A program made the position numbers and the translations under genes. This document shows, piece after piece, positions 21,974 through 28,821 of a stretch of 64,000 nucleotides of DNA (position 1 is the first letter of the stretch; every line of letters starts with the position of its first letter). The DNA is taken from assembly GCA_041667185.1 (NCBI GenBank), contig JBAYFM010000003.1, forward strand, positions 16,962 to 80,961. The letters run 5' to 3'. Source of the DNA: Patescibacteria group bacterium (GTDB lineage Bacteria > Patescibacteriota > Patescibacteriia > SG8-24). Below the pieces are notes generated by a model. That model did not search any database. It saw nothing but the letters and a program-made list of their open reading frames with translations, and was not told the DNA's origin.

Positions 21974-22441
21974 ATGGAAGACGTCAAGAAAAACGATCCC
22001 AAGGCTGCGGAGACTGCCGCCCCGGCCGGAGCCGACAAGGCCGCTGATGCCGCCAAGACGAAAGGCCGGAGCCGCCGCCGCAAGGCTGTGCGTCAGGTCT
22101 CGAGCGGCCGCGCCTACGTCCACGCTTCTTACAACAACACCATCGTTACCGTGACCGATGCGAACGGCAATGTCCTCGGCTGGTCGAGCGCTGGCAAGGT
22201 CGGTTTCAAGGGTCCCAAGAAGGCGACCCCGTACGCCGCGAGCGTGATCGTCAAGGATCTCATCGACCGCATCCGCGACACCGGCCTCAAGGAAGTCAAC
22301 GTCTTCGTCTGCGGCATCGGTTCCGGCCGCGAAGCCTCGGTCCGCGCGCTGCATGCCAACGGCATCAACGTGCTCGCGATCAAGGATATGACCCCGATCC
22401 CACATAACGGCTGCCGCGCGCCTAAGCCGCGCCGCATCTAG
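21974..22441 (+). CDS. rpsK: 30S ribosomal protein S11 (with Ala/Lys-rich N-terminal extension)
   Basis: ...AYVHASYNNTIVTVTDANGNVLGWSSAG... Confidence 0.9.
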   Translation: MEDVKKNDPKAAETAAPAGADKAADAAKTKGRSRRRKAVRQVSSGRAYVHASYNNTIVTVTDANGNVLGWSSAGKVGFKGPKKATPYAASVIVKDLIDRIRDTGLKEVNVFVCGIGSGREASVRALHANGINVLAIKDMTPIPHNGCRAPKPRRI

Positions 22442-23124: not shown

Positions 23125-23991
23125 ATGGAAGACTTATTGCTTCCTTCTAAGGTCGAGATCATCCCCGGCAAGACCGAACGCGAAGCCGTGCTCGTCGTCG
23201 AGCCGTGTTTCCACGGTTACGGCACCACCATCGGCAACGCTCTGCGCCGCGTGATGCTGTCGTCACTCCCGGGCGCCGCCGTCACCGCCATCAAGATCAA
23301 GGGCGTCCAGCACGAGTTTTCGTCCATTCCCGGCGTCAAAGAGGACACGCTCGAGGTCGTCCTGAACATGAAGGCTCTGCGTTTGCGCCTGTTCGGCGAG
23401 GGCCCGGTCCGTCTGCGCCTCTACGCCAAGGGCGCGACCGAAGTCACGGCCGCCGACATCGAAGGCAATTCCGACGTCGAGATCGTCAATCCTGATCTGC
23501 ACATCGCCACCCTGACCGACAAGAAGTCCGAGTTCGAGATGGAGATCATCGTCGGCAAGGGCCGCGGCTACACCACCACCGAGGAGCGCAGCAAGGAGAA
23601 GGCCGAGCTCGGCGTCATCGCCATCGATTCCATCTTCTCGCCGGTGCGCGAGGTCGGCTATCGCGTGGAGAACGTCCGCGTCGGCCGCATCACCAACTTC
23701 GACAAGCTGGTCATGGACATCGAGACTGACGGTACGATGATGCCGTCCGAGGCCGTCGATCGCTCGGTGCGCATCCTGATCGACCATTTCACCCTGATCC
23801 TGAACCGCGGTACGGTCGTTGAGCCGGCTCTGCCGGAACTCGCCGCCGAGGTTGCGCCGATCGAAGCCGCGGAAGCGGTCGAGGTCGCCGCTCCGGCCGA
23901 GGTCGAAGAGACCGAGGAGTCGGATGAGGATAAGAAAGATAAGAAGGCCAAGGCCCCCAAGAAGGCCAAGAAGGCCGCCAAGAAAAAATAG
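23125..23991 (+). CDS. rpoA: DNA-directed RNA polymerase alpha subunit, N-terminal domain only, with acidic/Lys-rich tail replacing the alpha-CTD
   Basis: Alpha-NTD motifs (GYGTTIGNALRRVMLSSLPGAAVTAIKI...). The last ~55 aa are EAAEAVEVAAPAEVEETEESDEDKKDKKAKAPKKAKKAAKKK. Confidence 0.9.
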   Translation: MEDLLLPSKVEIIPGKTEREAVLVVEPCFHGYGTTIGNALRRVMLSSLPGAAVTAIKIKGVQHEFSSIPGVKEDTLEVVLNMKALRLRLFGEGPVRLRLYAKGATEVTAADIEGNSDVEIVNPDLHIATLTDKKSEFEMEIIVGKGRGYTTTEERSKEKAELGVIAIDSIFSPVREVGYRVENVRVGRITNFDKLVMDIETDGTMMPSEAVDRSVRILIDHFTLILNRGTVVEPALPELAAEVAPIEAAEAVEVAAPAEVEETEESDEDKKDKKAKAPKKAKKAAKKK

Positions 23992-24774: not shown

Positions 24775-25347
24775 ATGACTGCCACCAAGAAACCCGAGAC
24801 CGCCAAACCGGCTGTCAAGAAAGCCGCTCCGAAGAAACCGGCCGCCGCCAAGAAACCGGCCGTCAAGAAGCCGGAAGTCGTCGTCGAAGCCGAGGTCGCG
24901 GTGAAGATCGCTGCTCCGGTCGTCGTTGAGAAACCGGCCGCTGCCGTCGCTGGAGCTTCCGGTTACATCTACGCCCTGGGTCGCCGCAAGCGCGCCACCG
25001 TTCAGGCTAGACTGTATTCGAACGGCAAGGGCGAGATCAAAGTGAACGGCAAACCTTTGAAGGAATATTTCACCACCGACGTTCTGCAGAGCACGGTCAT
25101 GGCCCCGCTCAAGGCTGTCGGCCTTGATGACAAGGTCAATATCGATCTCAAGGCCATCGGCGGCGGCATGGCCGCCCAGGCCGGAGCCGCCCGGCACGGC
25201 ATTTCGCGGACGCTCGTGAAGATGAACGAGGAGTTCCGCAAGACCCTGAAACCGATGGGCTTCATGACTCGCGATCCGCGCGAGAAGGAGCGCAAGAAGT
25301 ACGGTTTGAAGAAAGCGCGCAAAGGACCGCAGTGGGCCAAGCGCTAA
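24775..25347 (+). CDS. rpsI: 30S ribosomal protein S9 (with ~60-aa Lys/Ala/Pro-rich N-terminal extension)
   Basis: ...GYIYALGRRKRATVQARL...GGGMAAQAGAARHGISR...KKARKGPQWAKR. Confidence 0.9.
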   Translation: MTATKKPETAKPAVKKAAPKKPAAAKKPAVKKPEVVVEAEVAVKIAAPVVVEKPAAAVAGASGYIYALGRRKRATVQARLYSNGKGEIKVNGKPLKEYFTTDVLQSTVMAPLKAVGLDDKVNIDLKAIGGGMAAQAGAARHGISRTLVKMNEEFRKTLKPMGFMTRDPREKERKKYGLKKARKGPQWAKR

Positions 25348-25454: not shown

Positions 25455-25469
25455 AAAAAAAGACACCGA

Positions 25470-25502
25470 AATAAAAATCCCGACGGCCGAGGCGTCGTCG
25501 GG
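25470..25502 (-). terminator. Rho-independent terminator for the 25523 minus-strand gene
   Basis: CCCGACG-...-CGTCGGG hairpin preceded on plus strand by AAATAAAAAT (U-run on minus strand). Confidence 0.55.
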
Positions 25503-25522: not shown

Positions 25523-26533
25523 CTATTCGGTGGGTGCTTCGCGTCGGAAGAAGACCAGCCAGATGCGCATGAGGTAGTCGACGGCCTTTTCCTTGCCGTG
25601 GGCGTGGATGTAGTACTCGCCCTTGGTCACGTTCTCGCCATAGAACAGCCGGTGCAGATTCTGGCGCGTGTCCGACCAGTCGATGCTGATGACGCTCTTG
25701 CGCCAGCCGATGGTGATCTCGCCCAGGTGCATCCGGAACTTGAACCACGGGGCGCAGCGCTCGCAGTCGCAGTAGCCGTTGGGGATGGCTTCGAGCTTGG
25801 CGTCGCCGTAACCGGCGGCTTGGAGGATCTCGCTAAAATATTGTCGCATCTCCTGCTCGCGGTGCTGGCGATTGCACTTGCGGTGATAGTAGCGCCGAAC
25901 GTTGAAGAGTGCTTCGTCGCCGGGCTGAATGACGTAGTCGTCGTCGATACCCTCGCGTTCGCCGACCTAGCCGAGTTTGTTGATCTTCGCATCCGGATAC
26001 TTCGGATCCGACCGCATATCGATGAAGCGATCGTTGCGGATCGAACTGCCGCCCGATTGGATGAAGTACTCGGCAGCGCGCCGGCGGGCGAAGACTATTT
26101 TGACCTCGCCGAGCGTCTGGCCGACGAATCGGGTGAGGTCGACGACCTTGGTGTCGCAGGTGGCGTGGAAGTCGTGGCAATCGGCCAGACTCCAGTATTC
26201 GCCGCAGTGCGCACAGCAAATGGATCGCGGCGGCGCGGGGACCTCGAGGGCGACCTCGATCCACGTATTGGCCGGCAAGTAGTTCCAGAGTTCCTTTTGC
26301 GGCAGGACATCGGGCAGACCCAGGACCATCTCTTTAGGGATATTCTTGCCGGTGATCCGGCTGAAGTTACCGCAGGAGTCGGTGGTCCAGCGCCCGAGGA
26401 TCACGAAGTCGTTCAGCCGCTCATGCCGCTTGTAGCCGGCCCGGAAGCGGTCGTCGATGAGCCGGTTGAGACCCTCGAGGTCGGTCAGGTATTTGGCTAT
26501 CCCTTCGGCGGTATCGTACGGTTTCGTTGTCAT
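25523..26533 (-). pseudogene. Cys-rich hypothetical protein interrupted by an in-frame TAG (at 25967-25969); pseudogene or recoding candidate
   Basis: ORFs 25967..26620 and 25523..25849 are in the same frame, and the 117 nt between them has strong GC3 codon bias. Motifs CCAHCGEYW, CHDFHATC, YCDCERCAP. Likely start at MTTKPYD (26533). Confidence 0.5.
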
Positions 26534-26719
26534 GATCTGACCTTTCGTTGGGTTGTGAAAGTACTTGGTGTTTACGGTCAGGATGAACAAATATATAGCT
26601 AAAATACGGCTAGAGGTCAAGTTATCGCTCAGTCGGAACCGCTGGGTGCCTCCGGATATACTTAAACTATGGTAAAATGGATCACGTTCGGTTCATCTAA
26701 TAAATGTTCAAACGGATAT

Positions 26720-27220
26720 ATGAATAAGAATATCGCGCTCCTGGTCATGGCCGCGGCTTTGGTGCTCGTGGGAGCCGGGTGCGGCAAGACGACGACGATG
26801 ATTTCCGGCGACCAGGCCGCGTCAAGAGACCAGGTCGTCCGGACCGCCGCTTTTCTGGATCTGAGCAATCAGGGCCTGACCAAGGTGCCGGCCGATGTCT
26901 TCGGTCGGACCGGGTTGGAGGTGCTCGACCTGTCGAATAATCGTCTGACCGGGGCCATTCCCGCGGAGATCAGGCTGCTGCAAAAATTGAAGACGCTGAA
27001 TCTGAGCAACAATGAGATGACCGGCCTACCGGCCGAAGTCGGACAATTGCGCGACCTAGAGGTGCTGGATCTGTCCAATAACCAGTTGACGGGTTTGCCG
27101 AACGAACTCCGCAACCTGTCGAAACTGCGGACCTTGAATCTCGCCGGAAATCCTTATTCCGCGGCTGATCTCGAGTACATCCGGCAAGGCTTGCCGAACG
27201 CCGTGATCATCATCAAGTGA
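26720..27220 (+). CDS. Leucine-rich-repeat lipoprotein
   Basis: MNKNIALLVMAAALVLVGAGC lipobox, then 5-6 LxxLxLxxNxL repeats (LEVLDLSNNRLTGAIP...). Confidence 0.7.
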   Translation: MNKNIALLVMAAALVLVGAGCGKTTTMISGDQAASRDQVVRTAAFLDLSNQGLTKVPADVFGRTGLEVLDLSNNRLTGAIPAEIRLLQKLKTLNLSNNEMTGLPAEVGQLRDLEVLDLSNNQLTGLPNELRNLSKLRTLNLAGNPYSAADLEYIRQGLPNAVIIIK

Positions 27221-27372: not shown

Positions 27373-28050
27373 TCAGTCGCAGTCGTAGACGAGGCAGAAT
27401 TCATCCAGGTCAGCCTCGGTCAGGTGGGTCTCGAGCACGGCTATGCCCGTGACATACTCGCCGCTGTTCATGATGCCGGGCCGGTTTTCGAAGTGGGCCA
27501 GGCCGATGAAATGTCCCAATTCGTGGAGCACGAGCGGGCGCAGGAACGCGACGCAGTCCGCGTGGAGCCGGTCAGCGCCGTATTCGAGGAGATAGGCCTC
27601 GTAGTCGCCATCCGGCCTTTCCTGGTAGTACGTATCCTCGGCGCAGTACCAAGGCAGCAGAGGTCCGTGGTTGGCGGAGATCAGGACGTCGCCGTAGGTC
27701 CCATAGCCGCGTCCTTCGCCGGTCACCGATTCGAGCTCCAGAAAATCCGGCGTCGTCTCGCTGATGCGGTAGATGACGTGCTGATCGTCCTCCAGATCGT
27801 GAAGGTGGAAAGTGTCCGCGGTCCGGCCGGTGACGACGAGCACTGGTCCGGGCCGGCTCAGTCTTGAGCCGGCCGCCGAATTCCATTCGGCGATCGCTTG
27901 CTCGATGCTCTCGAGTTCCATTCCGGTCCAGGCGTCTTCGATCACGATTTCGAGCGGCAGGTCCCGGCCGCAGGCGGACAGGACGGCCGCGAGCGGCAGG
28001 ATCAGCCGGAGCGCGCTGTTCAATTCAGGTCGAAAACGTAACCGAGCCAT
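27373..28050 (-). CDS. Secreted/lipoprotein zinc metalloprotease, metzincin family (HExxHxxGxxH)
   Basis: Signal/lipobox LAAVLSACG. Active site HELGHFIGLAH. Confidence 0.7.
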   Translation of the reverse strand: MARLRFRPELNSALRLILPLAAVLSACGRDLPLEIVIEDAWTGMELESIEQAIAEWNSAAGSRLSRPGPVLVVTGRTADTFHLHDLEDDQHVIYRISETTPDFLELESVTGEGRGYGTYGDVLISANHGPLLPWYCAEDTYYQERPDGDYEAYLLEYGADRLHADCVAFLRPLVLHELGHFIGLAHFENRPGIMNSGEYVTGIAVLETHLTEADLDEFCLVYDCD

Positions 28051-28553
28051 AGCTGGCCTCCGATCAGTGCGTCTTTGTAGATGGACAGGGCGTAATTGCC
28101 GTAGTAGAGCGGCACAGAGGTCGGATCAGCCAGAAAGGCGCGCCAGTCCACGGAGATGATGTGGCGCCCGCTGATCTTCCATTCGATCCCGCAGCCGATG
28201 GTCAGGTCGAAGAGTCGGTCGATCTTGGGATGATTCACTTTTGCCCAGGGTAGGTTTCCGAACACGCCCAGGTCGAAAGCGTGGACGCGCAATTCTTCGC
28301 CGCGATAGACGTCCAGGAGCAGACCCAGACCGAGTCCGTAGGGCGCGTAGAGATTCGCTTCCAGCGCGAACGGCACGTTCGGGATGTAGCGCACGCGCGC
28401 GGCGAGGAAGGCTCCGCCGTTCATGGCGGCGTAACTGCCGCCAGCGGCGGCCACAGCCCGCTTGTCAAAAAGCGAACTGTTCTCATAAGCTGCCGCCGGA
28501 GCGGTCCAGGCCGTCCCTAAACCCAGTACAACGAGCAGAGTCGAGGTTTTCAT
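28020..28553 (-). CDS. Secreted beta-strand-rich protein (OmpW/beta-barrel-like), hypothetical
   Basis: Likely start at MKTSTLLVVLGLGTAWTAPAAA (signal peptide). Alternating hydrophobic pattern. Overlaps the metzincin start by ~30 nt. Confidence 0.4.
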   Translation of the reverse strand: MKTSTLLVVLGLGTAWTAPAAAYENSSLFDKRAVAAAGGSYAAMNGGAFLAARVRYIPNVPFALEANLYAPYGLGLGLLLDVYRGEELRVHAFDLGVFGNLPWAKVNHPKIDRLFDLTIGCGIEWKISGRHIISVDWRAFLADPTSVPLYYGNYALSIYKDALIGGQLWLGYVFDLN

Positions 28554-28821
28554 GGCACCGTGCCCCCTACCCGCCACCGTACAACGGTTCAACGGATTGT
28601 TAAGGATCATGTCCGCATTCTCTTTACCAGATTTAAGCTCAAAAGTCAATGGTCGACAGCTCGCCATTTCGGGTCGTCAAAACGCCTTTTTATTGTTGGG
28701 TAAGCATCCCTTTTTAATTTTAGTACTCCCTGAAAGCGACCCTACGCCGAGGCTTGGGTGTTCATAGCGGCGATCTCTGCTATATTAATGGGACGATTCC
28801 AGTCATCTCATCTAATATCTT

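Follow-up and report, generated by a model that had tools for sequence, protein, structure and literature searches.

A conserved CPR gene of 336 codons is interrupted by a single in-frame TAG in a Patescibacteria genome, and the interrupted copy is very likely a young pseudogene, that is, a real and recent nonsense allele. The gene lies on the minus strand of the window, by which we mean the whole 64,000-nucleotide stretch of DNA analysed here, and all positions below are those of the window. Judged by alignment to the orthologous codons, the interruption is one G-to-A transition, TGG to TAG. A first-pass annotation of this DNA had left three options side by side, namely a recent pseudogene, a sequencing or assembly error and programmed stop-codon readthrough. 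We select the first, given that the site is TGG (Trp) in orthologues that are all unbroken, that readthrough finds no support and that an assembly error is effectively excluded.

Results

The reading frame extends from ATG 26533-26531 to TAG 25525-25523, and the TAG at codon 189 (25969-25967) is its sole interruption (Table 1). The minus-strand open reading frames 25967..26620 and 25523..25849, previously noted as sharing a frame, are thus borne out as parts of a single 336-codon frame. For the upstream one the coordinates and frame stand but the TTG start at 26620 does not, as the alignment of homologues places the true start at ATG 26533 (MTTKPYDT...); an SD-like AAAGG is found 8 nt before this ATG. 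The peptides CCAHCGEYW, CHDFHATC and YCDCERCAP, quoted at first pass, and the 39-aa spacer are each present in the translation, and the gene is indeed followed by terminator-like hairpins, in line with the terminators of its own that had been described. C107 (26215-26213) and C110 (26206-26204) are both encoded in the upstream fragment and D206, H217 (25885-25883) and C220 (25876-25874) in the spacer, so neither fragment has all four of the invariant residues C107, C110, H217 and C220. The downstream fragment amounts to most of the C-terminal alpha+beta domain and begins within the first helix of that domain.

Table 1 Features of the interrupted gene and its flanks (window coordinates)
Feature	Position	Strand	Remark
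Whole ancestral gene, 336 codons + terminal TAG	25523..26533	-	Collinear with 55 homologues
In-frame TAG, codon 189	25967..25969	-	Apparent TGG-to-TAG change, G-to-A at the middle base
Upstream fragment, 188 codons + TAG (NCBI WCT10_01545)	25967..26533	-	P0004, 100% identity, 188 aa
39-codon spacer from the TAG to the next ATG (25849), in neither annotated ORF	25850..25966	-	
Downstream fragment, 108 codons + TAG (WCT10_01540)	25523..25849	-	P0057
Terminator-like hairpins followed by T runs, 25-60 nt past the gene end	25464..25497	-	
AT-rich (0.42 GC) divergent intergenic stretch separating this gene from that of the LRR lipoprotein	26534..26716	.	

We searched 5.8 billion protein clusters with the concatenated product, in which the stop was written as X, and 55 homologues were returned, 45 of them at E<1e-37. 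The best homologue, P0001, is a protein of 336 aa that covers 100% of the query at 82% identity, followed by P0002 (63%) and P0003 (62%). Apart from fragments and proteins of ~190 aa that have only the C-terminal domain, the homologues are single proteins of 320-440 aa with 95-100% query coverage, and those with names trace to MAGs of Patescibacteria or Candidatus Sungbacteria. An exact match was obtained only for the upstream fragment, deposited as 'MAG: hypothetical protein WCT10_01545 [Patescibacteria group bacterium]'. When 1.84 billion representative proteins were searched with a profile, the result was 2260 family members, each a representative cluster at 50% identity, with 589 at E<=1e-30, and nearly all of the best 150 of these 2260 matches span profile positions ~2-330 unbroken. 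In GTDB species-representative genomes, 33 of 34 copies are open and uninterrupted. The gene therefore belongs, by full-length collinear homology, to a ~330-aa Cys/His family found mostly in CPR bacteria, and the codons of C107-x2-C110 and H217-x2-C220 are all present in the window frame; the family trait that is broken here, by the TAG at codon 189, is the single uninterrupted ORF.

Whether orthologues are uninterrupted or consist of two separate genes had been named in advance as decisive. All 179 full-length homologues are single polypeptides, and the two-gene organisation is found in 0/179 of them and in 0/34 genomic copies. This bears directly on a recent, functional gene fission, in which the 188-aa N-terminal piece would persist next to a 108-aa C-terminal domain re-initiated at ATG 25849 and which we regard as quite improbable. 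The C-terminal domain does occur in other architectures (the ~190-aa proteins and one ACP fusion), and both NCBI and a JGI assembly call both pieces as genes, but a fission at this point would lose 39 codons, including those of D206, H217 and C220. The proposed initiator, Met-228, is unconserved (Thr in P0001) and sits within the predicted helix 218-239. Although GGAG directly precedes ATG 25849, it abuts it at 0-1 nt, an unfavourable spacing for a Shine-Dalgarno sequence. A split gene would be expected to have a start right after its stop, whereas the next start here is 39 codons on, past H217 and C220.

The stop replaces a strongly conserved codon. The four closest relatives of the gene, P0001, P0002, P0003 and P0005, read GGC TGG GTC GGC where the window reads GGC TAG GTC GGC, and in the protein alignment the TAG falls within the motif N-x-x-G-W-V-G. 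Across the 179 full-length homologues the column of codon 189 holds W in 150, Y in 9, F in 8, H in 3 and C in 2; it is aromatic or His in 170 and a sense residue in 177, with a gap in the other 2. C107, C110, H217 and C220 are invariant (179/179), and D206 is present in 178/179. The spacer, which the first-pass annotation had described as coding-biased and as plausible protein, has a GC3 of 0.79 and is identical to P0001 at 31 of 39 residues, far above chance, with a dN/dS of 0.16. Conservation of the spacer at the protein level, the second point on which the earlier reading had been made to depend, is also evident in D206, H217 and C220.

An artefact of sequencing, assembly or consensus calling, with the organism truly carrying TGG, is scarcely credible. 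It would have to explain only one base that differs from the orthologous codon, and every copy stems from metagenome assemblies, but contigs of ENA assembly ERZ27249449 and of the Logan assemblies of SRR6484324 and SRR18595301 encode the identical 188-aa product and match the window at 100% identity over 6567, 5834 and 5186 bp, respectively, TAG included and with 0 mismatches. At least two different runs (SRR6484324 and SRR18595301) are thus involved, the TAG is also present in the NCBI MAG and in a JGI assembly, and the site lies outside any homopolymer or repeat. We regard the error option of the first-pass annotation as effectively excluded because of this identical TAG-bearing DNA in three independent assemblies. 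The search of 5.8 billion clusters yielded no intact allele above 82% identity and, since the best full-length match is at 82%, the strain has no intact allele in that protein collection. Within-population heterogeneity may be compatible with a TAG known from assemblies. Searching the literature by run accession turned up no paper on where the samples came from.

The lesion shows no sign of decay around it. The 147 codons past the TAG have no further stop and no frameshift. Pairwise dN/dS against P0001, which mostly reflects history before the mutation, is 0.28 upstream and 0.36 downstream of the TAG. When substitutions are polarised with three outgroups, the window branch has synonymous and nonsynonymous changes in a ratio of 19:11 upstream and 10:10 downstream; no difference is seen between the two halves (p=0.39), nor between either half and the P0001 branch. 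The neutral expectation from site counts is ~3.7 nonsynonymous changes per synonymous change. Upstream of the TAG, lineage-specific amino-acid changes number 7 in the window and 4 in P0001; downstream they number 8 and 4. Neither the pairwise nor the per-branch comparison detected any relaxed selection past the TAG. On these counts almost all of the divergence on the window branch appears to have built up under selection. We take the mutation to be recent because neither a second lesion nor a relaxation of selection could be detected. The lack of decay fits a very recent mutation but would also be expected if the downstream part were still selected, by way of leaky readthrough or as a functional fragment; recency is favoured because the orthologues carry TGG and because TAG is a normal stop here without signs of recoding.

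That TAG is a genuine stop elsewhere in the window, as stated at first pass for secF and rpsK, holds well beyond these two genes. Among 69 candidate ORFs in the 64 kb, a crude GC3-based set, the stops are TGA in 36, TAG in 17 and TAA in 16, which is not the depletion of TAG at gene ends expected under reassignment or suppression. The TAG-ended genes finish at or near the ends of their profiles: S11 (rpsK) aligns to positions 2-120 of 120, L17 (rplQ) to 5-111 of 112, SecF to 2-279 of 279, MreB to 2-324 of 327 and Def to 1-152 of 156, with fmt beginning 6 nt after def. The interrupted gene itself terminates in TAG. A scan of the window for stops that lie, within one frame, between two stretches of strong coding signal returned four places (this locus, the secD/secF pair, the def/fmt pair and one antisense artefact), and hence no other interrupted gene and no second gene with an in-frame TAG in the 64 kb.

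These observations weigh on the possibility that the UAG is read through, by leaky near-cognate decoding, a suppressor tRNA or a programmed signal, so that the gene stays functional, perhaps at a reduced or regulated level. The downstream frame is intact with no relaxed selection detectable, the TAG is the sole allele in three assemblies, and Tyr, Phe and His are tolerated at the codon-189 column in some homologues. Since these residues occupy it in 20/179, a near-cognate readthrough product could be tolerated. However, programmed readthrough requires the stop to be conserved at the site, and the four nearest orthologues all have TGG. TAG is also a frequent and verified stop, including in ribosomal protein genes, and an efficient suppressor would therefore lengthen many proteins. 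The codon context was checked for readthrough signals, as had been proposed: the RNA fold of the 111 nt around and after the TAG is no better than that of shuffled sequences (MFE -27.1 versus a shuffle mean of -29.6 kcal/mol, z = +0.83), and neither Rfam elements nor tRNA genes were found in the 64-kb window. The bacterial stop-to-Trp reassignments summarised in PMC13462651 concern UGA. The programmed-readthrough option of the first-pass annotation is thus unsupported, and readthrough of any of the three kinds has in our judgement only a small chance of being correct. The more specific proposal that UAG-189 is decoded usefully often, by a suppressor tRNA or by unusually leaky RF1 termination in the reduced CPR translation apparatus, is given a slimmer chance still; if true, the gene would remain functional and would be a natural example, from Patescibacteria, of amber suppression being tolerated where an aromatic residue is conserved.

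A further way to restore the ancestral residue would be A-to-I editing of the mRNA, by which hepatitis delta virus turns the UAG of its amber/W site into a Trp codon. Editing to UIG would indeed decode as Trp here, but the mRNA-editing motif of bacterial TadA is UACG in a tRNA-Arg-like loop, whereas the sequence at this site is CUAGG and no stable hairpin is predicted. We know of no precedent for stop-codon editing in bacteria and consider it extremely unlikely. A prophage or TAG-recoded phage origin was rejected because the gene has its own TAG terminator and host-like GC and GC3.

The composition of the gene is that of its surroundings. Its GC content is 0.606 against 0.604 for the window and a mean of 0.613 +/- 0.026 for window genes, and its GC3 of 0.78-0.87 is typical for the window. 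The lower GC that had been reported for the locus is therefore not confirmed; AT-richness is confined to the intergenic region upstream of the gene (26534-26716) and is normal where promoters lie. As for the accessory origin proposed on that ground, composition gives no support, but the variable neighbourhood is to some extent in favour of a gene that is dispensable or mobile. The downstream neighbour is a different one in the closest orthologue (87% nucleotide identity), and homology with it stops ~60-75 nt outside the gene; only a Sungbacteria orthologue has the same place directly after rpsI. A conserved neighbourhood as a clue to function was rejected, as neighbours differ in each lineage examined. 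In the lineages closest to the window, opposite-strand genes or clear gaps flank the gene, which there looks like a stand-alone unit. A distant member, P0035 (L012:1486-8375, MAG GCA_040384165.1), overlaps its neighbours in a same-strand operon with R2K ATP-grasp-like, ADP-ribosylglycohydrolase, phosphoribosyltransferase and cytidylyltransferase-like proteins; of the contexts seen, this one alone gives a hint of nucleotide or ADP-ribose chemistry.

Several nearby genes of the window have features of their own. The adjoining locus encodes an LRR protein whose N-terminus resembles a lipoprotein signal (26669-27220, plus strand), a protein with a weak matrixin-like metalloprotease match (27373-28050, minus strand) and a protein of 215 aa that matches no family (28020-28667, minus strand). 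The product of rpoA (23125-23991, plus strand; 288 aa) matches alpha profiles only at positions 5-241 of 320, which cover the N-terminal and dimerisation regions. The alpha C-terminal domain is missing from the window's rpoA, 41 nt after which rplQ begins, but is present in the Sungbacteria rpoA of locus L009. Ribosomal protein S9 (24775-25347, plus strand) has a ~60-residue Lys/Ala/Pro-rich N-terminal extension (190 aa versus a 130-position profile), and the S11 ORF (21974-22441, plus strand) has ~35 extra N-terminal residues, although its listed start may be too early.

The family itself has no significant match in Pfam, PHROGs, PADLOC, NCBIfam or PDB sequences, whether searched with the window protein, its orthologues or a 39-sequence profile; the best library matches, HypA (E=0.15) and scattered sub-threshold zinc-finger hits, are not significant. 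AlphaFold2, run on a 39-sequence alignment headed by P0001, gave a model with a mean pLDDT of 95.6 and a pTM of 0.87, in which a helix-plus-beta N-terminal region is followed by a C-terminal unit of helix 218-239, five strands and helix 314-331. The family model has no match among solved structures. The C-terminal ~120 residues share with frataxin (CyaY)/YdhG-like domains the order helix, strands, helix, with a weak Foldseek match to 9t2w (prob 0.92, TM 0.45 on the target), and further weak Foldseek matches of this part are to small phage proteins. This is a resemblance only: all E-values are >1e-3, sequences are identical at 8-15% of positions, and none of the sequence-profile searches gave a match. 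The C-x2-C ... H-x2-C set forms a putative metal (Zn) site with these residues as ligands. The intact protein would be cytoplasmic, probably Zn-binding and two-part, with a frataxin/YdhG-like C-terminal alpha+beta domain and encoded by a stand-alone gene. With low confidence, we suggest a Zn-dependent protein of the cytoplasm whose two parts need covalent linkage.

The C-terminal ~110-aa domain (IPNGYC..C.PWF...IGWRKSVI.IDW...ENVTKG..IHA.G) is also found in the ~190-aa proteins P0046-P0055, in which the N-terminal part is unrelated and to which positions 25523-25885 (minus strand) of the window are homologous; P0051 has it in fusion with an acyl carrier protein domain. The family occurs across CPR phyla (Saccharibacteria, Collierbacteria, Woesebacteria, Sungbacteria, Komeilibacteria, Paceibacterota and CPR2) and also in MAGs labelled as DPANN archaea (Nanoarchaeota/Nanoarchaeia) and Euryarchaeota (loci L014-L061). 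A Polyangiaceae MAG has two copies, gut Clostridia have a shorter form of ~240-260 aa, and several 'Gammaproteobacteria/Pseudomonadales' bins with the family may be mis-binned. One member, in the Candidatus Paceibacterota MAG SO_2016_GW1_64 (JBAYJV010000002.1; L039:3550-3600), is disrupted by a frameshift from +1 to +3 in or beside an A6 run (GAGGAAAAAATCGC), just upstream of the G-W-V-G motif that holds the TAG in the window; the frameshift could reflect a sequencing error in the homopolymer, genuine loss of the gene or a site of slippage.

Discussion

We propose that a G-to-A transition turned the nearly invariant Trp-189 codon TGG into TAG. As TAG is a normal stop here, translation would halt at codon 189 and release a 188-aa fragment, which would be without two of the four residues C107, C110, H217 and C220 and without the entire C-terminal domain. 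With so incomplete a fragment, the strain's copy of the gene would have lost its function or be severely crippled. The lesion appears young, with the downstream 147 codons intact and the signature of purifying selection retained, and the strain that carries it is apparently clonal across several samples. As the TAG allele is found in every sample of the strain, the loss, if it is one, would be fixed and evidently not costly.

Reading the locus as a pseudogene removes a candidate recoding event and calls for a single pseudogene annotation in place of WCT10_01545 and WCT10_01540. It would also mean that a free-living population of the strain can lose this widespread CPR gene without visible cost. 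A large unannotated family is unsurprising for CPR genomes, but its clear definition (2260 clusters), the very confident AlphaFold model, the lack of a counterpart among solved structures and the strictly invariant C-x2-C ... H-x2-C signature make it a reasonable target for structural or functional work.

The proposed lesion resembles that of ordinary bacterial nonsense pseudogenes, in which a TGG codon becomes TAG or TGA by a single transition under the usual GC-to-AT mutation bias: the same kind of change in a Trp codon, intact orthologues, no accompanying signals and fragments annotated as 'hypothetical proteins'. It differs from them in having no secondary decay, in being the sole allele in several samples and in affecting a family without a known function. 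With the stop reassignments of CPR and other bacteria it shares a Patescibacteria host and an in-frame stop aligned to a conserved amino acid (Trp). However, both code 25 (UGA=Gly, in Gracilibacteria and Absconditabacteria) and code 4 (UGA=Trp) concern UGA and not UAG, and here all three stops are in use, TAG-ended genes finish at profile ends and one gene is affected; no UAG-to-Trp reassignment is known in bacteria. An in-frame UAG inside a conserved ORF is likewise common to this locus and to pyrrolysine genes or programmed UAG readthrough, but Pyl genes keep the UAG among orthologues, whereas here the orthologues have TGG, no structure lies downstream and TAG is an abundant stop.
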